Origin: a virus
Lineage: Duplodnaviria > Heunggongvirae > Uroviricota > Caudoviricetes
DNA: 23,984 nucleotides
Reading direction: 5' to 3' (one strand)
IMG/VR virus record: IMGVR_UViG_2740892370_000017
Span: 1-23,984 of that record
In this document: piece after piece, positions 1,107 to 20,845 of the stretch
Layout of the letters: the number at the start of each line of letters is the position of its first letter
Position numbering within the stretch: position 1 is the first letter of the stretch
The notes under the pieces: generated by a model
Told to the model about the DNA's origin: nothing
The model's database searches: none
Seen by the model: the letters and a program-made list of their open reading frames with translations, nothing else
Made by a program: the position numbers and the translations under genes

Positions 1107-1407
1107 TTTAATTATAGAGAGAATTGCTCTCTTATTTCTTTCAACAATTCCATCTACATCTAGGGATAGTTATTCTGAAAGGTGCAATGCTTTTCGCTAC
1201 ATGACCTCTTATATAACCTGAGAGGTCATCTCGAAAAGTACTCTTGTTCATTCATTATTGAATCCTTTGCCCTTCACAGAAATGTTTAGGGCTTTTTCAG
1301 TTTTTAAAAGCACACTTGGCAGGTTCTTGTTCAGTCAGACTCTTCACCTCTGATTGCTGAGTGTGCTTCTATAAATTGAAATAACAAATAAACTAAGAGG
1401 TGAACGA

Positions 1408-2109
1408 ATGATTCGAGATGAACATGAAATGATTATCGAAAACAAACCAAGTGCACTTGATATTCACGAATTAAGTTTGCGTGAATCTTTTGATAGAGCT
1501 TGGCGGGAATCACACGAAGTAAAAAGAAGTCCTTATATTCCACCAGAACCACTCGAGATTCCAAGAGTTGAAATTGATTTTTCGATGAATGAGGAATGTG
1601 AGCTTGATTTGAAACTGAAGCTACAACGCCGATATTTCCAAGCTATTAAAGACTCTCAAGAAGCAATGAGAAGTGTTTACGAGAAAATTCAGTCCAAGCT
1701 TGAAGACGAAATTGACGAAATGGCTATTTTGATGGAGCTTCAAACCAATTCTTATGCTTATTTCTCTCGACTAGACCGTGATGGTTGGGGGTATGACCCT
1801 GTAGAGATTGGTAAAGTGATTGCAGATTTACCAGAAGGTCAAAGAGTTGTTCGTACAGAAAGAGCTGTCAGAGCACCACATCGACTGTCTCTAATTGTTG
1901 CTGATAAATCACAAGCTGAGCTTGAAGAAATTGCCAAAGAGAAACTGATGAAAGCAAGAGAAAATGAGATTAATTTGCTGAAATCAAGACTGGCTAAGCT
2001 GATTAGTGACCATCAAAAAATCGCTAAGGAATACAAACAAGAGCTTGCACAGATTAGTAGCTTCAATGACTTTTTGAGTGTTCCACGAGAATTTAGTAAA
2101 ACTATTTGA
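1408..2109 (+). CDS. hypothetical protein (233 aa), charged and probably coiled-coil-rich
   Basis: ATG 1408 with strong SD AAGAGGTG 5 nt upstream; long ORF; C-terminal half rich in E/K/L heptad-like stretches; no recognised catalytic motif. Confidence 0.6.
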   Translation: MIRDEHEMIIENKPSALDIHELSLRESFDRAWRESHEVKRSPYIPPEPLEIPRVEIDFSMNEECELDLKLKLQRRYFQAIKDSQEAMRSVYEKIQSKLEDEIDEMAILMELQTNSYAYFSRLDRDGWGYDPVEIGKVIADLPEGQRVVRTERAVRAPHRLSLIVADKSQAELEEIAKEKLMKARENEINLLKSRLAKLISDHQKIAKEYKQELAQISSFNDFLSVPREFSKTI

Positions 2110-2131
2110 TTATGCATATGTGAGGTGATGA

Positions 2132-2347
2132 ATGATTGATTTGCAACAGCGTTATGAAACTATTAAGTCGGCTTGTGAAAACTTAAAGTTACAAGCCAAT
2201 CCAGCCTTAAGAATTAAAAGCAAACGTCAAGTTATCACCTCACACAAACCAAAAACACGCAAGATTCCAAAGTGGTGTATTGACCGTATCCCTTCCGATG
2301 CTCAAATCATAGGTGAAACGGAATTACATTATCTTGTCAGACATTAA
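2132..2347 (+). CDS. hypothetical small basic protein (71 aa)
   Basis: ATG 2132 with SD GAGGTGA; 22-nt gap after upstream gene; K/R-rich. Confidence 0.5.
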   Translation: MIDLQQRYETIKSACENLKLQANPALRIKSKRQVITSHKPKTRKIPKWCIDRIPSDAQIIGETELHYLVRH

Positions 2348-2374
2348 AAAAGAATTGGTTGGGTAAAAATCAAC

Positions 2375-2420
2375 GGGAGAGATTATCTGGATGGCAATCT
2401 AGGTAACTCTCCTTTTTTTT
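2375..2420 (+). terminator. candidate intrinsic terminator
   Basis: GGAGAG (2376-2381) ... CTCTCC (2407-2412) stem followed by T8 (2413-2420); loop is long (25 nt) so the structure is only moderately convincing. Lies between the 71-aa gene and the tape-measure-like gene. Confidence 0.4.
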
Positions 2421-2455
2421 GTATATGAACGCTTAACAGAGGTGAAATATGAACA

Positions 2456-4531
2456 ATGGCACAATTTAAAGTTGATAGTTTTATCGTTGAACTAGGCTTC
2501 AGCGAGAACGTTATTAAGGGCTTGCAAAGAGTTGAAAAGGCAGCTTTGCAGTCAGCACAAAGAATTGAACGTAATTTGAATAGGGCGTTTAAGGTCGATA
2601 CCAAGCAACTTGACAGCAATCTGACAAGTTCTTTAGGGCAACTTGAAAGGAAGTTTAATAAGACCTTTGACAAGATTGAGCAGCGTTTTAAAAACACTAG
2701 AGCGTTTAAGATTAAAACGGAAATTGAGGATACTTTAAAGCCACTTAGACAGCCAAGACAGCCACGAATTAGCGGAAACAGAGCAATCACAGCAGCTTAT
2801 TCAGCTAATATGACCAAGCTGAAAGGTCTTAACCCAATTGTCGAGAAATACATTAAGAGTCAGTTTTACGCATTAAGTAGTAAATCCAAGACACTTGGGA
2901 ACGAAGCTTTTAATCGTGAGTTAGCAAAGTTAAATCAAAATCTACGTGAAACACTTTCTAAGTTTAACAAGACCACCAGCAAAAATAATCACAGTGAAAA
3001 GGCTTCGAATGGTCTGGATGTATTAGCTACAAGTGCAATCAAAGCAGGTACAGCCATTTATAGTTTTCAGACAGCCTTAGAAGCTTACAGGCGGATTATG
3101 GAGATTGGTCTGAAAAAAGAAGCATCACAACGAGCGGCACAATTCGTTTTAGGTGATGAAGGTGCTAAACGAGCTACAGAATTTGTTAAGAATCTTGCTA
3201 ATAACACTGGTGTTGACCAGATTGAAACATTAAGCAGTTTTGCTAAGTTTTCCGCTGGTGCTGGTGATATGGATGCAGGCCAGAAAGAATCCTTATTTTC
3301 TAATGTGATTGGTACATCCAGATTAATGGGGCTAAGCACTGATGAAATTAACGGGATTTTAAAAGCTTTTGAGCAGATGGCGAGCAAGGGCAAGATTCAA
3401 GCTGAAGAATTACGCGGTCAGTTAGGGGACAGAATGGCAGGTGCTTTTCAGTTATTTGCCAGAAGTCTTGGGATGACTACGGAAGAATTAGACAAGGCCA
3501 TGAAAGACGGTAAGGTTCTTTCTAAAGATGTTCTTCCTAAAGTATCCGCTGAAATGGGAAGGATGATTGATAAAGCTGGTGGATGGGAAAAGATTATTAA
3601 CTCTACTCAGACGCAGTTAGGCCGCTTAAGTAATTCATGGAATAATAATCTGGCCTTAATGTTCGATGGTTCACAGGAAGGTCTGGTAGATTTTACAAGG
3701 TCACTGACTAATTTACTTAATTCACTAGGTGGTCAATCTAAAAATCTTGGTGAACATTTTGGCGACCTGATGAAAAGCATGTCAAACGGTATTGATGATT
3801 TAACCACGATTAGCTACCGAGTGCAGGGATTCTTTGACAGAGTGACCCTTGCTTACAGAGAATTAAATGACACTCAAAAAGCTGTAGCTGATGGTATCGC
3901 AAATGGCCTGTTAAGTGCATTAAAGGGACTTGCTGGTATTGTCGCTGTAAGGTCTGGTATTGGTGCTGTAGGTGGTATCTGGAACTTAATTAGGGCTATT
4001 TCCACGCTTGGAAATGTAGCAAATACAGCAGCAGGAAGAATTAATTCACGTTCCGGTAGTGTTGAAGGTGGTAAAGGAAAATTATCTGTAGCTGATGCAA
4101 TTACCAAAGTAATGATTGTCGGTATGGCAACTGATGTGATTAACTCCATTGTTAAACCGTTCTATGAACGTCAGATGAGTAAGTCAGATAATCCAATTGA
4201 CAAAGTTGTAAGGTCAAAGGTGGAACCTACAGACCAAGCATTGTCTGGTGACATGAACTCTTTAGCCGCTGTTTTATGGGCTATGGTTCAGGGCAAATCA
4301 AAAGATGTTCCACAGTTTTCACCTGAAGCATTAAATAATCTGAAAGGTCGAGTGGAAACATTCACACAAGATTTAAAGGTTATCAAGCCGTCAGTAAATA
4401 TTCAGCCTCAGACAATCAATATCACAACTCAGACGGTACTTGATGGAAAGGTTATTGATGAAAGAACCACATCGCATATTAATCGTATGCAGGAAGATAC
4501 CTTGATTAGCTCAGCTTACCCAGAGGAATAA
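2456..4531 (+). CDS. phage tail tape-measure-like protein (691 aa)
   Basis: Long, largely helical ORF; central segment ...GLSTDEINGILKAFEQMASKGKIQAEELRGQLGDRMAGAFQLFARSLGMTTEELDKAMKDGKV... matches the pattern of the conserved tape-measure core (G.S.D...AL....G.I.AEEL..QL.DR...A...A...G.TTEEL...M.DG.V) as I recall it from lambda gpH-type proteins; Gly-rich hydrophobic stretch LKGLAGIVAVRSGIGAVGGIW typical of such proteins. SD AGAGGTG upstream. Confidence 0.55.
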   Translation: MAQFKVDSFIVELGFSENVIKGLQRVEKAALQSAQRIERNLNRAFKVDTKQLDSNLTSSLGQLERKFNKTFDKIEQRFKNTRAFKIKTEIEDTLKPLRQPRQPRISGNRAITAAYSANMTKLKGLNPIVEKYIKSQFYALSSKSKTLGNEAFNRELAKLNQNLRETLSKFNKTTSKNNHSEKASNGLDVLATSAIKAGTAIYSFQTALEAYRRIMEIGLKKEASQRAAQFVLGDEGAKRATEFVKNLANNTGVDQIETLSSFAKFSAGAGDMDAGQKESLFSNVIGTSRLMGLSTDEINGILKAFEQMASKGKIQAEELRGQLGDRMAGAFQLFARSLGMTTEELDKAMKDGKVLSKDVLPKVSAEMGRMIDKAGGWEKIINSTQTQLGRLSNSWNNNLALMFDGSQEGLVDFTRSLTNLLNSLGGQSKNLGEHFGDLMKSMSNGIDDLTTISYRVQGFFDRVTLAYRELNDTQKAVADGIANGLLSALKGLAGIVAVRSGIGAVGGIWNLIRAISTLGNVANTAAGRINSRSGSVEGGKGKLSVADAITKVMIVGMATDVINSIVKPFYERQMSKSDNPIDKVVRSKVEPTDQALSGDMNSLAAVLWAMVQGKSKDVPQFSPEALNNLKGRVETFTQDLKVIKPSVNIQPQTINITTQTVLDGKVIDERTTSHINRMQEDTLISSAYPEE

Positions 4532-4620
4532 ACAATGTTAGAACTACTAATATTTATTGCCACACATGGCAATCTATTAATCTTTATCTAGTATGACGAT
4601 TCAACTATGAATAGTCGAAT

Positions 4621-4675
4621 GCTACGTGAAATCTTCTGAACAGATACCAACATCAAAAATTAGATTTCACGTAGC
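4621..4675. repeat. 14-bp perfect inverted repeat with 27-nt spacer
   Basis: GCTACGTGAAATCT (4621-4634) and AGATTTCACGTAGC (4662-4675) are exact reverse complements; not followed by a T-run. In the 173-bp gap between the tape-measure-like gene and the 254-aa gene. Confidence 0.6.
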
Positions 4676-4704
4676 TCACGCTTAACAGAATAGGAATAAC
4701 AACA

Positions 4705-5469
4705 ATGTTTGACACAAAGCAAATTAGATACTCAGGTAAAGATGGTATCTATTTTCACCTTAGAGATAATGTAGAATCTTTTCTTGCCTTAACAGCTACT
4801 GAACAGATGGACTATGACTCACCGATGATGGTGACAACTCAGGCTATGCAATCGGGGCAAACTATCACTGATAATGTTCAGAGAGCACCTAAGACCATCT
4901 CTATCAGCGGTGTTGTAGTGGTTGATTCGACGGGTTCAGTTCTATTAACCAGACAGGGGCAACTTGTAGAGACCTTTATTTCTACGGTTGAACAATGGCG
5001 AGACCAGAAGCAAATCATCACTATTGTTTGTAGAGATGGAATAGCTATCACTGATAGTATCATTACTCAGTTTAAAGCGAGTAAAGAGCATACCATTGCT
5101 AACGGTCTTCGTATTCAGATGACCTTCCAAGGTGTAGAGTTTCGTTCAATCGTAGGTCAGACTGATATTTCGGCTGCAACTGGCAAGACCGCTACCACGA
5201 ATGATGGTGGTGCTACCAGCAAAAAGAATACAGGGAACACTACAACGAGCCTTGGAAGCCCTATGCTGACCTGTAAAGAGCTTTTTAGCTATTCGGCAAG
5301 TGAGTTATCAGATGAAGCGCTAAAAGCCCGTGTAACGTGCTCTAAGAGCGTTAGCGTTAAAAATGGTGAGAGCACCTTCACAGCCTCAGCTAATGAGCAA
5401 GCTTCAAAGGTGCTTAAGTCGGGTAATGCTTTACGGAAGTTTAGTGTGAATCCTAACAAGCGCTACTGA
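4705..5469 (+). CDS. hypothetical protein (254 aa), Ser/Thr-rich C-terminal half
   Basis: Clean ORF immediately after tape-measure-like gene; weak SD; could be a tail-associated protein by position only. Confidence 0.55.
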
Positions 5470-5483
5470 CGATAGAATCTCAA

Positions 5484-7007
5484 CTATATGATAACCTCAT
5501 CAACATCTATTAAACCCCTCTCAGTGACTTCAGAAAGCGACTGTATAGCCTCTGTAACGTTGTCTGAGGGGGTTTCTGTTATTGGTAGGTCAATTAACTT
5601 ACCGTTGTGAAAAGTTACTTTGCAGCGACGTTTAGCGGTATTTAAAACTACCTCTTTAACAGCACTTTTGATTATCAGTTGTGCTTCAATCCTTCCCGCC
5701 TTTGTAGTCAAGTCACAATCAGACAAACAACCCACATCAATAGATTTAAGGCGTTGTGTCTCCTTCTCGATATCCGCATCAACCTGTGATAACTCATTCT
5801 TTAGTTGTTTTAGTTTGCTGGTAATAGCGGACAAGTCTTCAATTTCAAGTGATAGTTGTACCAGCTTTTCTATATTGCTTGAGATGTGTTCACGGTGTAG
5901 CCTCAACATATCTATGGTATTCGTCGTATCGCTATCAAATCGGTCAAGACGAGATAGCAGGGTAAGCAATGTACCATCGGTTTGCTTACGTGACAGCCCT
6001 TTAGCACTACAACGGTTTTCATTACGAAGAGGACAACGATAAATCCCGTTTCTTGTATCGCTAAAGCCTGTGATAATCAGAGCATGACCACATTCAGAAC
6101 AACGGATAACACCTTTAAAGAGATTCACACTCAATGGTTTACCTGAAACAGGTTTTCGACCGTAACGAGAATGTGATAGTTGTTGAACTTTGTAGAATGT
6201 TGTTTCATCTATAATTGCAGGATAATAACCAGCTATCTCCTCACAGCCTTTAGGGGTGAAGTAACCAATTACAGAGCGATTCTTCAGAAGGTCTTGCACT
6301 GAGGTTTGACCAAACTTACCCGGCTTATACTGGCTCATCGACTGGTGACCTTCATCATTAAGAGTTCTGACAATCTCCCAGATAGACTTACCCTCTAACC
6401 GTAGCTGAAAGCACCTCTTCACAGTCTCCACTTTCTCAGGTATCACAGAGAAGCTTTTACGGTCATCATTAAGCTTAAGCCATGCAGGACAACGTTTAGA
6501 AACTTTGATACCAGCTTTAGCAGCCTCTTTCTTGGCATCCCATGCAGCCTGTATACGCTCAGATTTACGCAAACTCTCCTCATGCGCCCTTTGCATTATC
6601 AAAATGCTTTTAATCAGAGCTAGCGGGTCTCTAAGAGATTCCCTTGTGTAATGTTCACCATCGGACAAGGTGACCACATCTACACCAGAACGCAGGATGT
6701 TTCTTAATAGCTCCGAAGCAATATCTATGTCTTGACGTGACAAACGGTCTAAACTCTCGATTAGTAGTGTATCACCAGCTTTAACAAGCCCTTTCTCGAT
6801 AGCGGTTAAGAAGTCACCTAAGCCACCTTTCAAGTGCTTACCAGTGAACCCACTCACCCCCAAATCACGGAAGGATAAATCTTGGTCAAGGTAGTACTCA
6901 GGATGAGCCTTAAGCCAGTCATTAACCATCTTAGACTGTCTGCGTAGTGAGTCGCCTTTGGCTTGTCGCTCAGAACTGAATCTGATGTAGCTGATTACAC
7001 GTTTCAT
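5484..7007 (-). CDS. large serine recombinase (resolvase/invertase-type catalytic domain plus recombinase and zinc-ribbon regions)
   Basis: N-terminus MKRVISYIRFSSERQ... has the Y.R.SS..Q catalytic serine motif of serine recombinases; 507 aa with Cys-rich CSECGH...YRC segment and C-terminal coiled-coil, typical of large serine integrases. ATG 7007 with SD GAGGTG. Confidence 0.85.
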   Translation of the reverse strand: MKRVISYIRFSSERQAKGDSLRRQSKMVNDWLKAHPEYYLDQDLSFRDLGVSGFTGKHLKGGLGDFLTAIEKGLVKAGDTLLIESLDRLSRQDIDIASELLRNILRSGVDVVTLSDGEHYTRESLRDPLALIKSILIMQRAHEESLRKSERIQAAWDAKKEAAKAGIKVSKRCPAWLKLNDDRKSFSVIPEKVETVKRCFQLRLEGKSIWEIVRTLNDEGHQSMSQYKPGKFGQTSVQDLLKNRSVIGYFTPKGCEEIAGYYPAIIDETTFYKVQQLSHSRYGRKPVSGKPLSVNLFKGVIRCSECGHALIITGFSDTRNGIYRCPLRNENRCSAKGLSRKQTDGTLLTLLSRLDRFDSDTTNTIDMLRLHREHISSNIEKLVQLSLEIEDLSAITSKLKQLKNELSQVDADIEKETQRLKSIDVGCLSDCDLTTKAGRIEAQLIIKSAVKEVVLNTAKRRCKVTFHNGKLIDLPITETPSDNVTEAIQSLSEVTERGLIDVDEVII

Positions 7008-7057
7008 TGTTCACCTCACCTAATAACCCCTAGATTGTATCGTTTTAGATGGTGTAT

Positions 7058-7516
7058 TTAAACGTGTCTAATAAAAATCACCCGATTAACGCCGCGCTGA
7101 TGTAAACCGCGATTAAGAGTTTGTTCCTCTTCCCCTTTGGCGAAAAACTGTGGATGGCGGACTTCCACACCATAATTAAATTCGCCAGGGAGAGAATCGA
7201 GAAAATGCCAAAGCGCAGGCAGCTCCCGTGGGCCGAATGTGGCAGGCAGTTGCAGCCAGTATTGCCCAATGCGCGGAGCCAACGGTGACATGCGGGTCAA
7301 AAATTCAGTCACTAAATCATCGCAATGTCGTAATGCTGCCTGATGCGAAATGGTCGCCGGAAACTTAAAACAGAAGCGGAAGTCATCTGTGGTCTGTTCA
7401 CGCCAGCGCAGGACAACCTCGGGTTTCGGCAGGGCGTAAAGCGTGGTGTTGCCCTCCACGCAGTTAACATGACGGGTATTGAAGGCTAACCCACTGATTT
7501 TAATAAGTCTCTTGTG
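7058..7516 (-). pseudogene. yecE: remnant of a chromosomal DUF72-family gene (probably yecE), truncated at both ends
   Basis: GC-richer ORF wedged between two integrase genes. Track start at 7459 is GTG and the frame stays open upstream to a stop at 7517-7519 with no ATG, overlapping the integrase 3' end. At the other end the ORF terminates a few codons after the composition switches to AT-rich sequence near 7075. Identification as yecE is from memory. Confidence 0.45.
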
Positions 7517-8799
7517 TCACTTTGGTGACCATGGGACATCATTGGGACATAATCTGCCAGCTTCTGATTCAGCATTGCGATCTGTTCTGCATTGCTGTCA
7601 GTCATCCATGCTCCGTATACATTGAACACCATCTGGGCACTTGCATGACCCATCTGGCTGGCAATGAAGCTTGGATTTGCTCCGGCAGATAATGACCAGC
7701 ACGCATAAGTGTGTCGTGACTGGTATGCCTTTCGATGCCTGATGCCTGCACGCTTAATAGCTGATTCCCATGAGTCGCCAATGGAATCTACCTTGTAGAT
7801 AAAACCTACCTGTTTGCTTTTTCTAACCACCTGGGGGTTAAATACGAAAGTACATTCATGATTCACTGAACGTCCATATTCACGTAGTTGAACCTTGATG
7901 TGGTGCTGCTTACCCAGTCTTGTCATTTCAGCCTGATTTTTCAGGACACTGATAGCGGGCTGGATAAGATGTATAACCCTGTTAGTACTTGCTTCAGTTT
8001 TAGGTAGAGTGAACTCATCGAGTTTCGTATAATTGCGCCGGATAGTAATTGTTCCTGCTTTCAGATCGATATCTTCCCAGGCCAGGGAGACCAGTTCACC
8101 ATGACGCATTCCTGTGTACACAGCCAATGACCACAGGTTTTTTGTCTGCTGATGTCGGCAAGCATCTATCAGGCGAATAAATTCGTCACGAGTTAGCGGA
8201 TCTGGCTCTGCCCTGGCTTTTTTAAGAGGCTTAATTCCCTCGAAGGGATTTGCTTCTAAGTAACCGTGATCTGCAGCAAACTGAAACATTCCAGCGATTG
8301 TCGTCATGTAATAATTTACTGTGACAACGCTTCGTCCTTTTACCGGAGCCTTACCTTTTGTTGGATTTTGGTGTCCGGTCAGCAAATCTTTCCTGATATA
8401 CAGCAATTCCTCTTTGGTCACCGTTGACACCAGTCTGCTACCTCCAATTTTCGGAACCATCGTTCTTGCAACGGATTCATAACGATTGAATGCATTTGCA
8501 GAGATTTCCATTCGTTTCAGATCCAGCCACTTTTCTTCAAGTTCTTTCACCGTAATTTCTTTTTTACTTACCCCAAAAGCCTGAAGGTTAGGGGAGTCAG
8601 GGAACTGTGCAGCATAATCAAAGTTTCCTGTGCGGATGGCAAAACATACCGATGTCCGCAGTTCTCCAGCGATCTTCCTGTTCTTGGCAGTGTCAGGGAC
8701 ACCAAGATTTTCCCTGACACGTTTACCTTTAAAATTAAACCAGATGCGCAATGTGCCACCGTGGTTTTCGACGCCTGTTGGATATTTGACTTTATCCAT
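7486..8799 (-). CDS. int: phage tyrosine integrase (lambdoid/Rac-like family)
   Basis: 437 aa; N-terminal ...PTGVENHGGTLRIWFNFKGKRVRENL... resembles the arm-binding domain of Rac/P4-like integrases; C-terminal catalytic residues present (R in ...GMRHGEL..., H-x-x-R in ...RHTYACW..., Y in ...VYGAWM). Confidence 0.9.
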   Translation of the reverse strand: MDKVKYPTGVENHGGTLRIWFNFKGKRVRENLGVPDTAKNRKIAGELRTSVCFAIRTGNFDYAAQFPDSPNLQAFGVSKKEITVKELEEKWLDLKRMEISANAFNRYESVARTMVPKIGGSRLVSTVTKEELLYIRKDLLTGHQNPTKGKAPVKGRSVVTVNYYMTTIAGMFQFAADHGYLEANPFEGIKPLKKARAEPDPLTRDEFIRLIDACRHQQTKNLWSLAVYTGMRHGELVSLAWEDIDLKAGTITIRRNYTKLDEFTLPKTEASTNRVIHLIQPAISVLKNQAEMTRLGKQHHIKVQLREYGRSVNHECTFVFNPQVVRKSKQVGFIYKVDSIGDSWESAIKRAGIRHRKAYQSRHTYACWSLSAGANPSFIASQMGHASAQMVFNVYGAWMTDSNAEQIAMLNQKLADYVPMMSHGHQSDTRDLLKSVG

Positions 8800-8854
8800 T
8801 GATACCTCCAGACGCCCAAGAGCGAAACGAGCTTACATACTTCATGGCATTAAA

Positions 8855-9091
8855 TCACCCAGGTTGTTTGTTTTTCATTGAAGCGACCCAGGCATCTATT
8901 GCTTTTCTGTTATACATACATTCGCTGGATGGCTTTGGATTACCATCTGGTGATACGTGAATATACTCTCTTCCTACCATCCAGCATTCTTTCCGGGCTC
9001 GGAGAATTGTGCCTGGTTTGAGCCCGGTAATTGCGATAAGAACGCTTTCACAAACCCATTCATTGGGAGCCAGTTGAATCACATTGCTCAT
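8855..9091 (-). CDS. xis: excisionase-like protein
   Basis: 78-aa ORF immediately upstream of int on the same strand, the canonical xis position; sequence resembles lambdoid excisionase-like small proteins as I recall them. Confidence 0.6.
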   Translation of the reverse strand: MSNVIQLAPNEWVCESVLIAITGLKPGTILRARKECWMVGREYIHVSPDGNPKPSSECMYNRKAIDAWVASMKNKQPG

Positions 9092-9099
9092 ACATTACC

Positions 9100-9246
9100 T
9101 CACACAACACTCAGCCCACGGCAGTGGCACCACACTTCAAACATTCGTTTCACAATTTCACGACAGTAGAAACCGTCAACATCTCGCGTCAGGTCATAGC
9201 GATTGCCGTAACGCTGGCGCACCCATAGCTCAAACGCTTTATTCAT
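9100..9246 (-). CDS. hypothetical small protein (48 aa)
   Basis: Not in the ORF track (too short). ATG at 9246 with SD GGAAG; reads MNKAFELWVRQRYGNRYDLTRDVDGFYCREIVKRMFEVWCHCRGLSVV; stop 9100-9102 lies 8 nt before the xis start. Tightly packed with neighbours. Confidence 0.35.
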   Translation of the reverse strand: MNKAFELWVRQRYGNRYDLTRDVDGFYCREIVKRMFEVWCHCRGLSVV

Positions 9247-9249
9247 TCT

Positions 9250-9492
9250 TTACTTCCTTTTCATGGCCCGTAATTTTTTCAGATGAGCTTCCTGCTCTGT
9301 TTCTGCCAGAATTTGTCGGTATTCCTGGTGATCAATCCGTTCAAACAGTTCATTGAAATCGTTTATTTTTACTGACTGTGTTCGCCCATCCATTCTTCTG
9401 TACAACACAGTGTTGTTTATGCAGCGAACAATTTTTACCGGGTAATCGGCATTGTCGGTATACAGTTGTCCCTGATTAATCAAAGAGAACAT
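9250..9492 (-). CDS. hypothetical protein (80 aa)
   Basis: Track ORF 9250..9615 overlaps the next gene; internal ATG at 9492 (MFSLINQ...) has SD AGGAG and removes the overlap. Confidence 0.5.
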   Translation of the reverse strand: MFSLINQGQLYTDNADYPVKIVRCINNTVLYRRMDGRTQSVKINDFNELFERIDHQEYRQILAETEQEAHLKKLRAMKRK

Positions 9493-9523
9493 TTTTTCTC
9501 CTGCTCTCTGAATAGCGAGAACT

Positions 9524-9895
9524 TCAGAGCCGTATGTTTGTAGCGGGTTCAATACTGATAATTTCTGCTGAGATAAGCATCCCGGCAAGCCAGAGCTCTC
9601 CGGACAGGTCTTCATCCTGGCATATCAGTTCGCCAATATTAATGGTGGCCATGATGTCTGTTTCCCCTGTACGCTCATCCTCGACTTCTTCATAAGGCAG
9701 CGTTGCGTACAGGCTTTCAATAGCGCAACTGATAACATCGAGTCCGGTCAGGTTGCCACCGACAGTGACTTCGAATGTTTCGCGGTATTCCCATAGCCCG
9801 AAAGTTAATCGAACGGTTTGTTTTGCCATGCGTCCGCATGACGTCAGATTTGGGTCATAGTTCATTATTTGCGGTTGAGTATTATGAGTGTTCAT
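9524..9895 (-). CDS. hypothetical protein (123 aa), acidic
   Basis: ATG 9895 with SD-like AGGGA; no recognised motif. Confidence 0.5.
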   Translation of the reverse strand: MNTHNTQPQIMNYDPNLTSCGRMAKQTVRLTFGLWEYRETFEVTVGGNLTGLDVISCAIESLYATLPYEEVEDERTGETDIMATINIGELICQDEDLSGELWLAGMLISAEIISIEPATNIRL

Positions 9896-9936
9896 CTGCT
9901 TTTCCCTTAGCCCGACGGTCTGCCGGGCATATTAAG

Positions 9937-10267
9937 TTATTTAACCTGGATAAATGGTGTATTGGCACCACTGGTCATGTATTGCGGCAGCGTGCCGTTC
10001 CATTTATTGATGGCTTCCAGCTCCACAACACCGGGGTTCTGACGCAGAGCTTCACCGCGTAAACGAATAGCATCGGCTTCAGCCTGGGCTTTTGTGCGAA
10101 TCGCATCAGCCTGTCCAGTAGCGACCAACCCCGACCACTTCACCGACGCCTTTGTCGTCGTCAAGTTTGTTGACTTTGATGCCCACATTACCAGGCTCAA
10201 CACGATCACAACCGACAAGGCCAATGGCAGGCAGAACAATGGCTAAAGAAAAAATAATTTTTTTCAT
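9937..10267 (-). pseudogene. lipoprotein gene remnant, frameshifted (N-terminal signal/lipobox in one frame, SPFH/band-7-like C-terminal tail in another)
   Basis: Frame A from ATG 10267: MKKIIFSLAIVLPAIGLVGCDRVEPGNVGIKVNKLDDDKGVGEVV... (signal peptide plus LVGC lipobox) stops at 10106; frame B (track 9937..10239) continues ...VATGQADAIRTKAQAEADAIRLRGEALRQNPGVVELEAINKWNGTLPQYM..., which resembles the C-terminal tail of prohibitin/HflC-type proteins. Total is far shorter than an intact protein of that type. Confidence 0.4.
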
Positions 10268-10452
10268 CTTTTATCCTTGGTGAAAGAAAGCCCCTTATAA
10301 ATGGCACAAATGCACGGCGGGGTCAGACACGCCAGAGCAAAGCCAGAAATCACTGCTACCGTATCCTTCATTGATATGAGGGCCGGAACGATTAATCCGT
10401 AAATACATGAGATAATTGCCAGTGATATAACTATTTTGAAATAAATGTTCAT
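10264..10452 (-). CDS. small hydrophobic membrane protein (62 aa)
   Basis: ATG 10452 with strong SD AGGAGG 5 nt upstream; two hydrophobic stretches; stop overlaps lipoprotein ATG as ATGA. Confidence 0.55.
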   Translation of the reverse strand: MNIYFKIVISLAIISCIYGLIVPALISMKDTVAVISGFALACLTPPCICAIYKGLSFTKDKR

Positions 10453-10512
10453 GGTCCTCCTGATGTATGCGGCTTGCCTTATTTAATTGCGTCATGGTTA
10501 ATTTCGTTTACG

Positions 10513-10905
10513 TCAGAATGGTTTTGTTGCCATCAGTTCGTAATATCCGGCGCTCCATGTGTCATATTTTCTGAACCATTTTTCTGTATACTGTTTCCTG
10601 GCGATGAGTCTGCGCAGTCGTCTGATTGTTCGCTGGTGTGCGCGGGTATACTCTGTGGTTGATTCTCCACGTTTCCATATCTCATTCCCGTTGAAGATAA
10701 AACGCTTGTCAGGATAGCGTTGCCGGAATCCTGAACGTTCAAAAGCGCGGGTGGTCATAAAGAATGCCAGGTAACGAATTGCCGTTTTTCGGGTGAGGCA
10801 TTTTTTTGTTCTTCCGTGGCGTGTTACAAAAAATAACGGGCCGACGGGTGTATCATGTTTCTGTAATGCCTGGTCAATGGCGCTGGCGGTGCGGTTGTCG
10901 ATCAT
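10513..10905 (-). CDS. hypothetical protein (130 aa), basic
   Basis: ATG 10905; ATGA overlap with upstream track ORF; no recognised motif. Confidence 0.5.
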   Translation of the reverse strand: MIDNRTASAIDQALQKHDTPVGPLFFVTRHGRTKKCLTRKTAIRYLAFFMTTRAFERSGFRQRYPDKRFIFNGNEIWKRGESTTEYTRAHQRTIRRLRRLIARKQYTEKWFRKYDTWSAGYYELMATKPF

Positions 10906-11091
10906 TTCTTTATTTCTCCCGAATAACGTTCATGACTCATTACTTCCCAGTTCCGGCCGTCGCCTTTCGATAACAGCCGCCAGCAACGGTTAACCTTCAG
11001 ACTGAGATATCCGGTGCGCTGTATCCGATGCGGAAATATCCGTCGGCATCGGTACAACAACAGGACCTGCAATGCCTGCCGGTGGATCCGC

Positions 11092-11307
11092 TCAGGAATG
11101 CGTGTTGCTGTTAATGCCACCGGTTTCCTCCTGAGCAGGTGCTGTTATCTGATACCCCGCTCTTTCTGCCAGCCGTATGAATGTATCCATGCTGGCAATC
11201 AGCTCGCCATCGCGGACTTTGCAGACACCTGTGACTTGGCCATTTTCAATTGTCATAACGATCTGCACTTTTTCGCGCACAACAGATACAGGGGATAAAT
11301 TAGCCAT
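11092..11307 (-). CDS. hypothetical protein (71 aa)
   Basis: ATG 11307 with SD GAGGA 8 nt upstream; protein-like composition. Confidence 0.5.
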   Translation of the reverse strand: MANLSPVSVVREKVQIVMTIENGQVTGVCKVRDGELIASMDTFIRLAERAGYQITAPAQEETGGINSNTHS

Positions 11308-11432
11308 CAGTTAATTCCTCCACTGGTATATTTTTCTTTCGCGTAATCAATAACCTCTTGAAAAAGGTTGTCTATAATTAACTTTCCGGTTTCAGTCAGG
11401 TATTCAGTATGTTGATTAATCCCGATAGCATT

Positions 11433-11666
11433 CTAGTATGCAGTGTGGATTTCGGTTTCACCCTCCACCCGGCCCAATTCACCACGGGTAATACCTTCGA
11501 AGCGTAACAGCAACTGGTTTATAAACTGTTCAGTTATTTCTATAGTCGCAATGTTCCCATCCGGAAGGTCAACAATAAGCAGATTACCACCTGTTTTACG
11601 TTTTATTCGATGGAGTGCCGCAACAGCTATACGGCGACGATATGTATTAATGGGTTCATATGCCAT
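11433..11666 (-). CDS. hypothetical small protein (77 aa) with Arg-rich N-terminus
   Basis: ATG 11666; N-terminal ...TYRRRIAVAALHRIKRK... is Arg-rich; sits just below a 200-bp AT-rich intergenic region where a leftward early promoter would be expected. An N-like antiterminator role is speculation. Confidence 0.45.
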   Translation of the reverse strand: MAYEPINTYRRRIAVAALHRIKRKTGGNLLIVDLPDGNIATIEITEQFINQLLLRFEGITRGELGRVEGETEIHTAY

Positions 11667-11865
11667 TTGTTATTTCCCGTATGCTTTACGCAGAAATAAG
11701 CAGGCAATATGCATGTAATTTTCACCGTGTTGTGCAATAAGACAGGCTGTTTTGTGTGATGTCTTATGTTTTATAAAAGTCATAATAAAGGCTCCAGTGG
11801 ATTAAGTGTGTGATAATCCCCGGCGATTAAGCCGTAATATATTGTTCAGCGATAATATGTTTTAT

Positions 11866-12066
11866 TTAACTGGATAGTTCTTTTTCAGTTGCTGCTTCAG
11901 CATAGCAACGTGCAAATTCAAGAACTTCATCACCTGTTCTTTTTATTGCATCGTTGTCTGACATTTGTAATACGACAACTGCGCATAATAAATCATGGAT
12001 ATTGTTTGCAAAGGAATCCGGTGCCAGGCATAAGCCTTCATACTTATCATGGATATTGCCAGTCAT
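11866..12066 (-). CDS. hypothetical small protein (66 aa)
   Basis: Track ORF 11866..12108 overlaps the upstream gene; internal ATG 12066 (MTGNIHDKYEG...) has SD AAAGGAG 8 nt upstream and starts 5 nt after the upstream stop. Confidence 0.45.
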   Translation of the reverse strand: MTGNIHDKYEGLCLAPDSFANNIHDLLCAVVVLQMSDNDAIKRTGDEVLEFARCYAEAATEKELSS

Positions 12067-12071
12067 TGTTG

Positions 12072-12743
12072 CTACTCCTTTGCTTCTGATTTTCCCGTTA
12101 ACAACCACACCAGGTCACAATTAAGCGCACTGGCCAGTGGTACTATCTGATCAGCAGGAACTTCACAGATGCCGCATTCCCAGTCGTTTATGGGGGCACT
12201 GTAGGTATGAATCATGCGGGCAAGATCAGCTTCAGTTAAGCCCAGTTTTTTACGGGCGCTTTTGATGCGTGCGCCAATACTTTCCACATGGACTTCAGGC
12301 GCATTTACGCGAATAGCTGACTCGCTGTTTTTTTCACTCAGCAGAGAAAGCGGATCGCATCCCAGGACGTTTGCCAGGGGGATAAGCATGCTGATGGTTG
12401 GTTCGTACTCTCCGCTCTCCCATTGCAGAATAATCTCTTCGTCAAGATCGAGTAGTCTGGCCAGTTCGGTGGTCGTCAAGCCGCAGGCTTCACGTTGGGT
12501 ACGGATTTTTCCAAAAAAGTGACTATGCGAAACCATAGCTTTTGCCTCACATAGTTTTTCTGCAAAAATTGATGCAGTTTCTTCTGTTTTTTGCAGGGAA
12601 CGCATCAGGCATCTGATTGCATTATAAACCCTCTCACTTTCTGCTCCGTTTTCTGACATGTAGGAATAGATCATTCCAAGCAGCGAGCCGCCTTCTTGTA
12701 TTTGTGCTGCAATTTCATCCATCACCTTAACTGCATGCTTCAT
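12072..12743 (-). CDS. double helix-turn-helix (XRE-type) DNA-binding protein (223 aa)
   Basis: Two HTH_XRE-like segments (...GLTTTELARLLDLDEEIILQWESGEYEPTISMLIPLANVLGCDPLSLL... and ...GLTEADLARMIH...INDWECGICEVPADQIVPLASALNCDLVWLLTG). ATG 12743 with SD AGGAGG. Lies immediately downstream of cI on the same strand. Confidence 0.7.
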   Translation of the reverse strand: MKHAVKVMDEIAAQIQEGGSLLGMIYSYMSENGAESERVYNAIRCLMRSLQKTEETASIFAEKLCEAKAMVSHSHFFGKIRTQREACGLTTTELARLLDLDEEIILQWESGEYEPTISMLIPLANVLGCDPLSLLSEKNSESAIRVNAPEVHVESIGARIKSARKKLGLTEADLARMIHTYSAPINDWECGICEVPADQIVPLASALNCDLVWLLTGKSEAKE

Positions 12744-12919
12744 ATGAGCCTCCTGTTGTTTTAATTTTACAATAGCTAAAGCGTTTGGTTATGTCAATCG
12801 CTATAGCTATGCATTTTGAGCAGCAAAGAACAGATTATGAGAGAAATGAGACGATACGTAGGGAGTTGAGATACAGGAAAGTAGAGCAGCTGCGCAATAC
12901 AGCTGCCGGTGATGTTGAC

Positions 12920-13624
12920 TTATCCGACCCTGTTATACTGGATTGACTGATGAATGAGAACTTTCCCCATTATGAATAGATGTTCTTCAGCTGATTCACT
13001 TATAAACCATTCCTTGTAGGCCGGATTGTCTGATATAACAGCAAGTTGCATCCCTTGCATTTGCAGGCGTTTGATATGGAAGGTGTGCCCAAAAATAAAA
13101 ACATAGATACCGTCAGTTTCAAAATTTCTGACGGATACGTCGACAAACACCTGATCTCCTGCACACAGAGTAGGAGCCATGCTGTCGCCATCAACTGTTA
13201 TCATCTTTATGATATTTGCTGGCCTGCTACAGAACAGACGTCTTGCGGCGTCATGTGAAAATTCTATAGCATGGACCGTTTCTGCAAAATCTGAAACAAG
13301 GAATGTTCCTGGTCCCGCGCTGGCAGCGATATCCAGGACTTCCACACGAAAAATATCCTTATCATTTTCCAGCGGGGAATATGATACCTGTGGTGTCGGA
13401 TTGCAGGATGTGCTTTCTTCTGGGGTCATAGGACCAACACCGTACGATAGCCACTCGGGGCGCACGTTCAGGGTATTGGCTATCTCCACAACTTTCCTGG
13501 AGCCTGTGGCACCATTAACCAGTTTATTTACGCTCGATTGAGCCATGCCAACCTCTCTGGCCAGTTTTCCCTGCGAGTATCCGCGGATAGTCATAGCTAA
13601 CTGTAGCCTGTCTGAAAAGCTCAT
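12920..13624 (-). CDS. cI: cI-like phage repressor (N-terminal HTH, C-terminal LexA/S24-type autopeptidase domain)
   Basis: From ATG 13624 (SD AAGGAGG): MSFSDRLQLAMTIRGYSQGKLAREVGMAQSSVNKLVNG... (HTH); C-terminal ...VDGDSMAPTL... and ...HIKRL... match the Ser/Lys dyad context of S24 peptidases. Divergent from the Cro-like gene. Confidence 0.85.
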   Translation of the reverse strand: MSFSDRLQLAMTIRGYSQGKLAREVGMAQSSVNKLVNGATGSRKVVEIANTLNVRPEWLSYGVGPMTPEESTSCNPTPQVSYSPLENDKDIFRVEVLDIAASAGPGTFLVSDFAETVHAIEFSHDAARRLFCSRPANIIKMITVDGDSMAPTLCAGDQVFVDVSVRNFETDGIYVFIFGHTFHIKRLQMQGMQLAVISDNPAYKEWFISESAEEHLFIMGKVLIHQSIQYNRVG

Positions 13625-13747
13625 AAGTCCTCCTTTTTCTGCCCTTTTAGTGTATCGCCTTAGCGATATATACACAAACCGCTTTTCCGCACATTGTAAT
13701 CGCTTTGATCAATCGCTATAGTGAATGGAATCAGGTTGGAGGTCGAT
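13625..13747. promoter_or_regulatory. cI-cro divergent control region with operator candidates
   Basis: 16-bp perfect palindrome TATCGCCTTAGCGATA at 13653-13668; additional ATCGC half-site copies at about 13697 and 13710; 13-mer TCAATCGCTATAG at 13708-13720 recurs at 12794-12806 upstream of the double-HTH gene. Confidence 0.5.
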
Positions 13748-14011
13748 ATGAAAAATGAAGGTATAGCCAAGGCTGTAGATATTGCGGGAAGCCAGATTGC
13801 TCTGGCTAGGCGTTGTGGTCGCGCGCAGTCAACAATTTGCGACTGGCTGAATGGGAAGAAAAAAATTTCTCCTGAATTTGTTCCGTCTCTGGTTAAGGCG
13901 GTCGATGGGAAAGTCCAGGCGTATGAATTTCGTCCTGATCTACCGGAGCTTTTCCCACACCCAAGCTTAGCGCACACAGAAGATGGAGTGTGCGAAGGAG
14001 ATAAACAGTGA
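13748..14011 (+). CDS. cro: Cro-like small HTH regulator (87 aa)
   Basis: ATG 13748 with SD GGAGG 7 nt upstream; ...IAGSQIALARRCGRAQSTICDWLNGKK... is HTH-like; divergent from cI across the operator region. Confidence 0.6.
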   Translation: MKNEGIAKAVDIAGSQIALARRCGRAQSTICDWLNGKKKISPEFVPSLVKAVDGKVQAYEFRPDLPELFPHPSLAHTEDGVCEGDKQ

Positions 14012-14715
14012 ATACAGCAATTTTTACCGACAAAGCATCTATGACCAGCGTTGAGATTGCTGAGTTGGTTGGTAAGCGCCATGACAATGTAAAACGCACT
14101 ATTGAAACATTAGCCAAAGGTGGTGTTGTCCGGTCTCCTCAAATTGAGGTTTCCGAAAGAATCAATAACTTAGGGTTTAAAGTTCAACACGAGCATTATC
14201 TGTTTGAAGGCGAACAAGGCAAACGCGACAGCATTATTGTTGTCGCACAGCTTTGCCCTGAATTCACCGCCCGCCTGGTAGACCGCTGGCGTGAACTGGA
14301 AGAACAGATCCGTAAGCCAATGAGCGAAATCGAAATGGTTGCCGCGATGGCGCTCGAGGCTGTTCGCCAACAAAGACGTCTTGAGCATGTGGAAGAGAAA
14401 GTCATCCACGTTACCGAAACAGTCGAGCAAATCAAAAGAGGCACCATACGCGATGGTTATGCAGGCTACCGTCAGCTGGTGGCGAAAACGGGTATGTCAG
14501 ATGCGAAATGTCGCAATCTGGTGAACGCATATCAGATCCCTACTGACACCCATGAATTTATGACGCCGGATGGATTGTTGTCTCGTCGCGCGATTGTTGC
14601 AGTAGAACCCTTCATGTCTGCTTTTCATCGCATGATGAGTGAAGCAGAACCACGGGGTACTCGCTGGTATCACCCGAAGATGGGGCTGTTCCAGGCGCTG
14701 GGCTGGCAGGGGTAA
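14008..14715 (+). CDS. phage antirepressor/regulatory protein (Rha/ORF6N-like N-terminus)
   Basis: GTG 14008 overlaps the cro stop; SD AAGGAG 7 nt upstream. N-terminal ...MTSVEIAELVGKRHDNVKRTIETL... matches the conserved FGKRHDNV-type motif of Rha/ORF6N antirepressor-like proteins. Confidence 0.6.
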   Translation: MNTAIFTDKASMTSVEIAELVGKRHDNVKRTIETLAKGGVVRSPQIEVSERINNLGFKVQHEHYLFEGEQGKRDSIIVVAQLCPEFTARLVDRWRELEEQIRKPMSEIEMVAAMALEAVRQQRRLEHVEEKVIHVTETVEQIKRGTIRDGYAGYRQLVAKTGMSDAKCRNLVNAYQIPTDTHEFMTPDGLLSRRAIVAVEPFMSAFHRMMSEAEPRGTRWYHPKMGLFQALGWQG

Positions 14716-14734
14716 TTATGCTCACAGGTAACAC

Positions 14735-16850: not shown

Positions 16851-16867
16851 TTTTGTGGGGTGTGAAA

Positions 16868-20833: not shown

Positions 20834-20845
20834 ACTACCAGAATA

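Follow-up and report, generated by a model that had tools for sequence, protein, structure and literature searches.

The phage phiP27 integrates in yecE. This gene is known as a hot spot for lambdoid Stx and effector prophages (PMC8112680, PMC3603311); the published yecE att region for phages is 21 bp long and contains GCAGTTAA, and activity has been reported for yecE-integrating phages (PMC8112680). No report that connects yecE, including the target at nt 473-479, with a serine recombinase was found in the open-access literature. Large serine recombinases (LSRs), such as those of phiC31 and Bxb1 and IntA of the PLE, are three-domain proteins whose genes are located at the very end of the element. 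Their attP and attB resemble each other in a short core only, and imperfect inverted repeats surround a central dinucleotide in attP; integration is clean and duplicates no more of the target than the common core.

Satellites of Enterobacteria and Vibrionaceae include PICI, cf-PICI, P4-like elements and PICMI (PMC10085698, PMC10803314). In the case of the PLE of Vibrio cholerae, the satellite's own tail tape-measure protein (TMP) is built into satellite virions, and interference with tail assembly is known as a defence strategy (PMC11364771; PMC12987554 for both). For Felix O1 or Ounavirinae phages, no relevant report on satellites was found in the open-access literature.

How does a hot-spot gene look when two unrelated integrases have used it? 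We analysed 23,984 nucleotides of an IMG/VR virus record (IMGVR_UViG_2740892370_000017), called the window below, in which an internal piece of yecE lies between the genes for a serine recombinase and a tyrosine integrase. With a probability of about 93%, yecE was cut here twice by two unrelated site-specific recombination systems, and its middle 394 bp were left stranded between the two elements. The features at and around the junctions are as follows, with the strand where one applies.

1-7073: right-hand ~7 kb of an ~11.2-kb integrative island, as judged from complete related copies; its left ~4.2 kb are outside the window
5484-7007, minus strand: LSR of 507 aa, the island integrase, with Resolvase (PF00239), Recombinase (PF07508) and Zn_ribbon_recom (PF13408) domains; phrog_95 integrase
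7034-7062, minus strand: sigma-70-like promoter candidate for the recombinase gene, from a consensus scan only (TTTAAA, 17-nt spacer, TACAAT), overlapping the island att arm
7052-7073: island-side att arm GTGTATTTAAACGTGTCTAATA, half of attP, conserved in all copies
7074-7080: 7-bp overlap AAAATCA containing the serine-recombinase crossover, from K-12 attB against the left and right junctions of island copy L002, and likewise of L003
7074-7467, minus strand: internal yecE (DUF72) fragment, nt 86-479 of 819, by ungapped K-12 alignment, DUF72 profile and megablast
7457-7467: common att core of the tyrosine integrase, CACGCAGTTAA, 11 bp, here in attL, by three-way identity with attR and attB
7468-7479: phage-derived segment with imperfect yecE homology (8/12 matches in the yecE alignment), part of the attP core region
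7468-23984: left 16.5 kb of a lambdoid prophage of ~52 kb, from int to a DNA methyltransferase gene, by identity to O103:H2-type genomes; the window ends inside it
7486-8799, minus strand: tyrosine integrase of 437 aa with Arm-DNA-bind_2 (PF12167) and Phage_integrase (PF00589) domains
8855-9091, minus strand: prophage excisionase gene, an ORF whose matching gene is annotated 'excisionase family protein' (DUF1233 in relatives)

The stranded piece of yecE

Positions 7074-7467 correspond, on the minus strand, to nt 479-86 of yecE, that is, 394 bp if both crossover cores are counted, or 406 bp with the imperfect phage/host homology added, which extends to 7479. A sequence-only reading of this DNA, which had recognised a yecE/DUF72 fragment here, estimated it at about 460 bp, and this estimate was too long. 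The alignment with K-12 yecE nt 86-479 has no gaps (97-99.7% identity) and fixes both breakpoints, at nt 86 and nt 479. The identity of the gene was read correctly: the ORF at 7058-7459 matches DUF72 (PF01904, E=1.3e-31), and megablast finds the segment, annotated as yecE or DUF72, in 5,419 of 5,426 complete E. coli genomes at 95-99.7% nucleotide identity, which excludes a chance match. Indeed, the frame has no ATG, is open from 7516 and has its first listed start at GTG 7459, as had been described, and the neighbouring recombinase ATG at 7007 and integrase stop at 7486 (7486-7488) are also where that reading had put them. It had further seen a switch of composition near 7075, with the coding sequence ending a few codons beyond it. 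The switch is real, an abrupt GC step from 0.43 to 0.535 around 7074-7100, though the breakpoint is now refined to 7074, and the ORF ends in 16 nt that belong to the island (7058-7073). At the other end, 7468-7516 are prophage DNA, and the GC change there is milder than that at the left junction. yecE is in three pieces here and is inactive.

Two attachment sites in one gene

The prophage can be followed to both ends. Its core CACGCAGTTAA is identical in attL of the window, in attR of genomes 12009 and 2015C-3163 and in attB of K-12, and falls inside the published 21-bp yecE att region used by Stx/effector phages at this hot spot (PMC8112680). Here attR is taken from genomes 100% identical to the window over 7074-23984; these are O103:H2-type genomes without the island, in which the far prophage end, and the core repeat that the sequence-only reading had proposed to look for there, adjoin yecD. 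Thus the right junction is an attL, as had been suggested. The tyrosine integrase is WP_000362001.1 in the annotation of O103:H2 and other genomes. Compared with the lambdoid Stx/effector prophages of the yecE hot spot, this prophage has the same target gene, the same att region, the same int-proximal attL layout and, likewise, a lambda-type integrase with an arm-binding domain together with an excisionase. The yecE prophage of O103:H2-type genomes also carries T3SS effector genes (nleG and espW are found in these genomes), so that there is no essential difference from the known prophages. stx genes were not found in the yecE prophage of the 100%-identical reference genomes, and the window ends before that region. 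Genome H175, in which yecE abuts bet, was considered as a third insertion site and rejected, being a deletion derivative of the prophage.

For the island, complete copies measure 11.1-11.4 kb between the two yecE junctions (L002, L003). The 7-bp sequence AAAATCA is common to the near and far island junctions and to empty yecE, and no yecE sequence is lost, so that both junctions fall at one position of yecE, nt 473-479, which is the island attB. It was proposed earlier that the serine-recombinase element came in by a second, independent insertion, and this holds. As to its core, which had been expected near 7010-7080, the overlap is found at 7074-7080, within which sequence alone does not place the crossover dinucleotide. 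The predicted attP is GTGTATTTAAACGTGTCTAATA-AAAATCA-TCAAGGTCTAAATACAC, and joining of both arms would give the stretch GTGTCTAATAAAAATCATCAAGGTC; the arms form a 9-bp inverted repeat, GTGTATTTA/TAAATACAC, whose centre of symmetry is the AA with which the core begins. attP and attB are dissimilar, with a common core of only 7 bp. The window has the recombinase-proximal junction of the island and the int-proximal attL of the prophage, and both recombinase genes turn their attachment-proximal ends to the fragment, as had been noticed.

The LSR has the N-terminal motifs YIRFSSERQ (YIRFSS...Q) and DRLSR in its translation, and is conserved at 92-96% among E. coli copies (dN/dS 0.12-0.21). Like phiC31, Bxb1 and PLE IntA, it is a three-domain LSR encoded at the very end of its element, it uses unlike attP and attB with a short core and imperfect attP inverted repeats about the centre, and its integration is clean. 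It differs from known LSRs in that no recombinase in phage records exceeds 36% identity to it. A known temperate phage as the source of the recombinase was sought by tblastn in 50,697 phage records and rejected, the best matches being YbcK-like lambdoid proteins of 36% identity. A recombination directionality factor was not identified in the island. With its defined attP and attB of ~46 bp, this LSR is a candidate tool for genome engineering.

Does the island ever leave the chromosome? The predicted attP is matched exactly over 32 nt in a metagenome contig of 11,473 bp (L023), which is circularly permuted and has no yecE flanks. This single contig, with an adapter on one of its ends, indicates that an excised, attP-bearing form of the island exists. 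Another metagenome contig of 11,186 bp (L032) was considered as a second circle and rejected, as it has neither attP nor a terminal overlap.

How the gene came to be in three pieces

The window holds one junction of each element, and we infer the far junctions from related genomes. In one event, a lambda-type tyrosine integrase would have recombined attP of the ~52-kb prophage with attB at yecE nt 86-96, the core CACGCAGTTAA, by which the first 96 nt of yecE would have come to lie ~52 kb to the right of attL, adjoining yecD. In the other, the LSR of the ~11.2-kb island would have recombined its attP with attB at nt 473-479, and the last 347 nt of yecE would now be located beyond the island, adjoining yecN. 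The two insertion sites are 377 bp apart, so that neither insertion damages the att site of the other element. Since both events are conservative, excision of one element should not require that of the other, and yecE should be whole again once both are gone. The 100% identity of 7074-23984 with genomes that have no island indicates that the island probably arrived after the prophage in this lineage.

Occupancy of yecE can be counted among the 5,426 complete E. coli genomes. The island junction is present in 279 and the prophage junction in 507, with both in at least 11; the island stands alone in ~268 and the prophage alone in ~496. Thus, empty (K-12), singly occupied (hundreds) and doubly occupied (at least 11) forms of yecE, which the sequence-only reading had named as the strains to look for, all exist. 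Prophage-only genomes retain an intact island attB (for example L004). Both junctions with the same spacing are seen in 11 of the 5,426 genomes, and further double occupancies in eight IMG/VR loci, two draft genomes and one Citrobacter freundii genome. These separate and joint counts argue that the insertions are independent and recurrent. Co-occupancy is below random expectation (11 observed against 26 expected, hypergeometric P=4e-4), a figure confounded by phylogeny and by the fact that megablast misses an integrase type of only 72% identity. The deficit could hint at interference; because of phylogenetic structure and detection limits, however, we do not take it as evidence of exclusion.

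Two other accounts of the locus were weighed. It might be supposed that the stretch 7058-7516 is a small gene in its complete form, or an unrelated ORF, rich in GC, with two recombinase genes as chance neighbours, and an ORF with a GTG start is in fact listed at 7058-7459. This is almost certainly wrong, because the alignments refute it: only profile positions 22-138 of 217 of DUF72 are matched, the gap-free alignment at 97-99.7% identity covers just nt 86-479, and in related genomes the remaining parts of yecE sit beyond both elements, the 3′ part beside yecN and the 5′ part beside yecD. The fragment is incomplete at both ends and derived from yecE. Or, a single composite element with both recombinases may have inserted, its yecE piece being an internal duplication or a capture by recombination. 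The adjacency of the two elements and the recurrence of the arrangement at constant spacing would fit such an element. Nevertheless, it is very improbable, as hundreds of genomes have the island without the prophage or the reverse, with the junction unchanged (~268 and ~496), island and prophage variants are combined in a mosaic manner (67-100% identity), the island exists as its own circle, and the fragment is a colinear single-copy part of yecE and not a duplicate. The double insertion is an ordinary event, and is a clean textbook case of one hot-spot gene and two recombinase families. It is also useful for calling boundaries of prophages and islands in STEC genomes: automated tools fuse both elements, and have done so in every IMG/VR record examined.

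Genes carried by the island

A side observation, absent from the sequence-only reading, is that the element with the serine recombinase is no prophage but a satellite-like island of 11 kb. Apart from the recombinase gene, the following genes of the island are to be mentioned.

1408-2109, plus strand: island-specific protein of 233 aa, function unassigned, with no Pfam, PHROG or PADLOC match
2456-4531, plus strand: TMP gene, 691 aa (TMP_3, phrog_4036)
4705-5469, plus strand: tail-tube initiator (Dit-like) gene (PF21821, phrog_3721, PDB 9ndy_A)

Over its full length, the TMP has ~30% identity with that of Felix O1-like phages, and the two genes match at the DNA level at their start; the island gene is intact in 12 of 12 other copies (dN/dS 0.16-0.37). 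For the tube initiator (dN/dS 0.11-0.25), the PDB match is 9ndy_A ('Tube initiator protein (gp018)', E=1e-101), and identity to Moogle gp65, encoded beside the phage TMP, is 66% in amino acids and ~74% in nucleotides. The pair is collinear with the Ounavirinae TMP (gp66) and gp65 of virulent Felix O1-like phages, in which the tube-initiator gene comes directly after that of TMP. Both genes are hypervariable yet under purifying selection; together with the recombinase gene they are intact in every copy examined (dN/dS 0.11-0.37). The island itself has a near-constant size of 11.1-11.5 kb and a conserved gene order among copies that differ by 5-33% in DNA, and this order is kept in more than 15 further copies. 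The 233-aa protein has relatives confined to E. coli, Shigella and Citrobacter, and a PDB sequence search was as negative for it as the profile scans.

TMP and the tube initiator are the only virion genes seen; capsid, terminase, packaging and capsid-remodelling genes were not recognised in the island by Pfam and PHROG, and the same scans showed no AlpA, pri-rep or Sid/Psu/Delta genes. For a tail assembly chaperone, the ORFs upstream of TMP were compared with that of Moogle by tblastn, BLASTP and hhalign with negative results, distant folds being outside these tests, and the AlphaFold model of a 107-aa ORF, with a pLDDT of 45, was set aside as too poor. A PADLOC scan of the island gave no defence system; its only matches were an orphan methyltransferase model and, marginally, LmuB. 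It is to be noted that where a Dam gene is present, the island copy also contains non-coding segments that are common to Felix O1-like phages (254 phages).

What might the island be?

In its probable way of working, the island resembles the PLE satellites. Both are small islands integrated by an LSR (11 kb here, about 18 kb for the PLE), and both encode their own TMP and a baseplate/tube-proximal protein whose gene adjoins the TMP gene of the helper. In both cases the two proteins have diverged from those of a virulent myovirus, to 30% and 66% identity in this island and to 20% and 41% in PLE11 (TMP and BhuB). In the PLE, they replace those of the helper to give chimeric tails. A further likeness is the replication-initiator-like gene that some island copies carry. 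On the other side, the host and the presumed helper differ (E. coli and Ounavirinae), the target here is a different one, a protein-coding gene, a tail assembly chaperone is not recognised in the island, and a RepA_N-type initiator is not seen. With PICI, cf-PICI, P4-like elements and PICMI (PMC10085698, PMC10803314), the island has in common its size range, an integrase at one end, and an incomplete set of virion genes along with candidate regulatory DNA shared with a phage, but its integrase is a serine and not a tyrosine recombinase, and its presumed helper is a virulent myovirus.

Most likely, the island either is a satellite similar to the PLE or interferes with the tails of virulent Felix O1-like phages, and in its sequence it looks like an undescribed satellite of these lytic phages. 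A tentative proposal by analogy, to which we give somewhat less than even odds, is that it corresponds in E. coli to the PLEs of Vibrio and would be the first satellite recognised for virulent Felix O1-like phages (Ounavirinae). In such a life cycle, phage infection would switch the island on through a phage-like palindromic control segment upstream of the operon; the island would be excised by the LSR and then multiply; its TMP and tube initiator would make chimeric tails for island-carrying particles and disturb phage tail assembly; and the extreme allelic diversity of both genes would record an arms race with the phages.

The island may instead be a mobile anti-phage defence island, never packaged, whose decoy TMP and tube initiator poison the assembly of Felix O1-like tails. 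An arms race predicts tail genes that are hypervariable under purifying selection in this case too, tail-assembly interference is an established strategy (PMC11364771, PMC12987554), and both the lack of any recognised packaging, capsid-remodelling or terminase-related gene and that of a stand-alone island contig in IMG/VR agree with it. However, known defence families are unmatched in PADLOC, excision or replication induced by a helper would agree with the phage-common non-coding segments and with the free circle, and the PLE precedent is of a satellite that builds its own TMP into its virions (PMC12987554); on balance, pure defence appears rather unlikely. Could the island simply be a decayed and inactive remnant of a larger prophage? 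Two leftover virion genes without capsid or terminase genes might look so, and PGAP labels the tail genes as ordinary phage proteins. Yet decay is hard to reconcile with a constant size of 11.1-11.5 kb and a constant gene order despite 5-33% DNA divergence, with intact recombinase, TMP and tube-initiator genes (dN/dS 0.11-0.37) in all copies examined, and with the existence of an excised form bearing attP. In addition, the tail genes derive from strictly virulent phages without an integrase, and recombinases in phage records do not exceed 36% identity, so that a remnant is quite improbable. Should the island indeed be a satellite or tail-interference element against Felix O1-like phages, there would be consequences for how such phages can be used. 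In E. coli, it would then also provide a tractable model of the 'chimeric tail' strategy, which has so far been demonstrated in Vibrio PLEs only.

Distribution of the island

About 5% of complete E. coli genomes carry the island. In a scan of one genome per species, only a 548-bp contaminant-like contig matched, from which close relatives seem essentially confined to Escherichia, Shigella and Citrobacter. In IMG/VR, the island is found only beside prophages inside predicted proviruses; the attP pattern and stand-alone island contigs are absent from this collection, which thus gives no sign of island packaging. Klebsiella has related LSR islands, with different cargo, at the homologous position of its yecE, which suggests a wider family of yecE-targeting islands.

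Two insertions in one hot-spot gene are an ordinary phenomenon, and half of the present case is published. What is added here is the exact breakpoints of both yecE insertions, together with the nature of the left element. This is a widespread and apparently undescribed island, a candidate for a satellite resembling the PLEs of Vibrio cholerae, or for tail interference, against Felix O1-like phages.

A piece of yecE between two recombinase genes

The sequence-only reading placed a host gene remnant between a serine recombinase gene and a tyrosine integrase gene. The ORF list and Pfam show these features, with the ATG-less open frame, where it put them:

5484-7007, minus strand: large serine recombinase (LSR), 507 aa; Pfam Resolvase, Recombinase and Zn_ribbon_recom
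7058-7459, minus strand: DUF72 ORF, 133 aa; Pfam DUF72, profile positions 22-138 of 217
7486-8799, minus strand: tyrosine integrase, 437 aa; Pfam Arm-DNA-bind_2 and Phage_integrase

No ATG occurs in the DUF72 frame, which stays open from 7516 to a stop at 7058-7060, and GC content rises from 0.43 to 0.535 over about 7074-7100, at the left edge of the fragment, where a composition switch near 7075 had been noticed. Besides the DUF72 match, the identity of this GC-rich remnant with yecE is borne out by megablast: 7000-7560 matches 5,419 of the 5,426 complete E. coli genomes, in genes annotated yecE/DUF72, and the matches run from 7074 to a right-hand limit at 7467-7479. Intact yecE in a K-12 derivative has 819 nt and is flanked by yecN and yecD. 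In an ungapped alignment to it, yecE nt 479 corresponds to window 7074 and nt 86 to 7467, and just 8 of the 12 bases at 7468-7479 match yecE. Because of these two breakpoints, the host-derived piece is put at 394 bp from the middle of the gene, covering approximately codons 29-160 of 272. Thus, the fragment is indeed an incomplete piece of yecE, shorter than the approximately 460 bp first proposed; the finding as such is real and was correctly interpreted.

The prophage on the right

The right junction is an attL, that of a lambdoid prophage inserted at the known hot spot in yecE, and the biology of this half is not new. Nakamura et al. (PMC8112680) described a 21-bp att within yecE, containing GCAGTTAA, and called the gene a hot spot for Stx phages, and Bobay et al. 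(PMC3603311) listed it among prophage-disrupted genes. Several O103:H2-type genomes match window 7074-23984 with 100% identity. Two of them, 12009 and 2015C-3163, have a prophage of about 52 kb that carries int, xis, early genes, the Q region, lysis genes, lambda-like head and tail genes and T3SS effectors (nleG, espW) in this order, up to a 96-nt yecE 5′ remnant adjoining yecD; no stx is annotated in the prophage of either. The junction in the window, its counterpart at the far prophage end and K-12 attB have an 11-bp core, CACGCAGTTAA (7457-7467), in common. The reconstructed attP reads ...CCCGTAT-CACGCAGTTAA-CATGACGGG..., with CCCGT/ACGGG inverted repeats.

Two Rfam matches above the gathering score lie adjacent to each other inside the prophage:

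14946-15022, plus strand: isrK RNA
15047-15134, plus strand: C4 antisense RNA

Two types of tyrosine integrase, with about 72% DNA identity, use the same yecE site (IMG/VR loci L007, L008, L010 and L014 compared with window 7486-8799). In prophage-only genomes PGAP calls a 256-aa DUF72 protein, WP_042854221.1, whose first codons are phage DNA (strain 2015C-3163, L024 6778-7548, equivalent to the window up to about 7504), and prophage insertion alone may leave a YecE with an altered N-terminus instead of a null allele. A yecE-bet fusion in strain 23CRST022 (L018, 5455-6815), considered as a third integration site, arose from the yecE prophage by a deletion that removed int and the att junction. 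It is to be noted that the provirus calls of IMG/VR treat prophage, yecE piece and island as a single 'viral' contig.

The island on the left and its att sites

The left junction is a second, independent insertion, made by the serine recombinase. The whole island, 11.1-11.4 kb in strains 2011C-4315 (L002) and N51 (L003), sits between a 348-nt yecE 3′ remnant adjoining yecN and the remaining yecE. In a three-way alignment, the far junction tracks yecE through ...GTCTAAAATCA, and at the recombinase-proximal junction yecE resumes at AAAATCACCCG...; the two overlap by 7 bp, AAAATCA (7074-7080), with no other yecE bases lost or duplicated. Both junctions therefore lie at one yecE position, in agreement with the independent insertion suggested earlier, and the att core falls within 7010-7080, where it had been sought. 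Joining the two arms predicts an attP of GTGTATTTAAACGTGTCTAATA-AAAATCA-TCAAGGTCTAAATACAC, in which 9-bp inverted repeats can be read, symmetric about the AA at the core start. Upstream of the recombinase gene there is a site matching the promoter consensus:

7034-7062, minus strand: promoter-like site (TTTAAA, 17-nt spacer, TACAAT), a consensus match only

As it overlaps the island att arm, recombinase expression could depend on site occupancy.

A 32-nt string across the predicted attP has one exact match in the metagenome collection, at 2938-2969 inside an 11,473-bp contig (L023; ERZ1090866 NODE-760). This contig represents the complete island in circularly permuted form, its two ends meeting at one and the same island coordinate, and it contains no yecE sequence. 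A Nextera adapter at one end means that it is no polished circle. Since its attP is internal to the contig and was predicted independently, the island does exist as an excised circle or concatemer. This is the first definition of these serine att sites, and the natural attP-bearing circle supports them.

Occupancy of yecE

Junctions among the 5,426 complete E. coli genomes searched
Island junction (query: window 6874-7273): 279 genomes
Prophage junction (query: window 7280-7680): 507 genomes
Both, at the same ~406-bp spacing (query: 300 bp of each element joined): 11 genomes

Singly and doubly occupied strains, which the sequence-only reading proposed to look for, are thus both at hand; the 11 double ones are 87-95% identical to the joined query, and prophage-only genomes (such as L004) keep the island attB intact. 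In IMG/VR, 8 of 8 recombinase-bearing loci are doubly occupied, with integrases of two types (72% and 85-94% nt identity to that of the window). Double occupancy is also found in 2 of 6 draft-genome places and in one Citrobacter freundii genome. As the variants at doubly occupied loci differ, the double arrangement arose repeatedly. Co-occupancy is 11 observed against 26 expected under independence (P=4e-4), a deficit that we leave uninterpreted, since both the megablast threshold and lineage structure introduce bias. Identity of 7074-23984 to island-free genomes suggests that in the lineage of the window the island came second.

Gene content of the island

The serine-recombinase element is not a prophage. 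Capsid, portal and terminase genes are absent, and no PADLOC defence model matches the island. The order in a complete copy is as follows:

Left end: ~1 kb of non-coding DNA
Variable left module: a Dam-type methyltransferase and an HTH_36 protein matching PHROG replication initiators, replaced in other copies by a small resolvase and further ORFs
After this module: several small ORFs without matches
Window 1-273: HNH-like ORF, 90 aa, weak (HNH_3 just under the Pfam cut-off; phrog_959)
Next: island-specific protein, 233 aa
Between this gene and the TMP gene: 71-aa ORF
Tail tape-measure protein (TMP): TMP_3, phrog_4036
Between the TMP and recombinase genes: Dit-like protein (tube initiator)
Very end, opposite strand: recombinase

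The HNH-like ORF begins exactly at window base 1. Recombinase, TMP and tube initiator are intact in all 12 other island copies, among which both tail genes are far more variable than the recombinase.

Divergence between island copies
Recombinase: 92-96% aa identity (within E. coli), dN/dS 0.12-0.21
TMP: 42-95% aa identity, dN/dS 0.16-0.37
Tube initiator: 58-98% aa identity, dN/dS 0.11-0.25

Being intact, under purifying selection by their low dN/dS and wide-ranging in identity, the tail genes are functional and hypervariable, and they are swapped as a cassette.

Kinship with Felix O1-like phages

The TMP and Dit-like genes (window 2456-5469) are collinear with the TMP gene and its neighbor in 267 Felix O1-like, strictly virulent myoviruses (Ounavirinae), and have no DNA-level match in other kinds of phage. 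In a comparison with phage Moogle (NC_027293), identity is 66% between the Dit-like protein and gp65 and 30% between the TMP and gp66; the remaining island ORFs have no homologue in Moogle. The Dit-like protein also matches a solved 'tube initiator protein (gp018)' (PDB 9ndy, E=1e-101).

Two non-coding segments at the left of the island, outside the window, resemble non-coding regions of 254 Felix O1-like phages at 70-88% identity (L003 9763-9800 and 9974-10031; Moogle 67072-67127 and 75591-75709). One of them, 58 bp with a GATATCC-N6-GGATATC palindrome, shares 88% identity with the divergent intergenic region of Moogle gp86/gp87, and seven island copies have it about 60 bp upstream of their Dam gene. 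The other matches the 1.6-kb repeat-rich non-coding region of the phage, with 11-bp-periodic CTATATAG-type repeats in common. These segments are candidate signals for helper-responsive control or for replication/packaging, and may mimic ori or pac. Eight times 11.2 kb is about 90 kb, close to a Felix O1-like genome (86-90 kb), so far only a numerical coincidence; it would allow concatemers to be packed into full-size heads, as reported for PICMI satellites.

Comparison with PLEs and other yecE islands

The closest functional analogue of the island is the PLE family, LSR-integrated satellites of the virulent myovirus ICP1 in Vibrio cholerae. PLEs have genes of their own for TMP (20% identical to that of ICP1), tail assembly chaperone (20%) and baseplate hub protein (41%), and these products take the place of the phage proteins in PLE virions (PMC12987554, 2026). 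Like a PLE, the island is small, uses an LSR and has a TMP gene paired with a hub-proximal gene, both of virulent-myovirus origin; unlike a PLE, it has a different host, presumed helper family and target site, and no recognisable tail assembly chaperone. Probably, the island works like a PLE, with a presumed helper and putative packaging; we do not class it as one. In the open-access literature, we found no paper linking Felix O1-like phages with satellites, or yecE with a serine recombinase.

In Klebsiella pneumoniae (L021/L022, 9602-21162), a 48%-identical recombinase marks an island of about 10.7 kb at the homologous yecE position, in opposite orientation and with an HTH_36 protein and a small resolvase as cargo and no tail genes. 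Because of this shared position, there appears to be an LSR clade specialised on yecE as preferred target. Elsewhere in the chromosome of E. coli 2785200 (L020, 10001-13934), a 68%-identical recombinase lies between a Lip_A_acyltrans-family (PF03279) gene on its upstream side and MFS-transporter and MsyB genes on its downstream side. The cargo that follows it is limited to about 3 kb, with one ORF and a small resolvase, and the element is a minimal or decayed relative.
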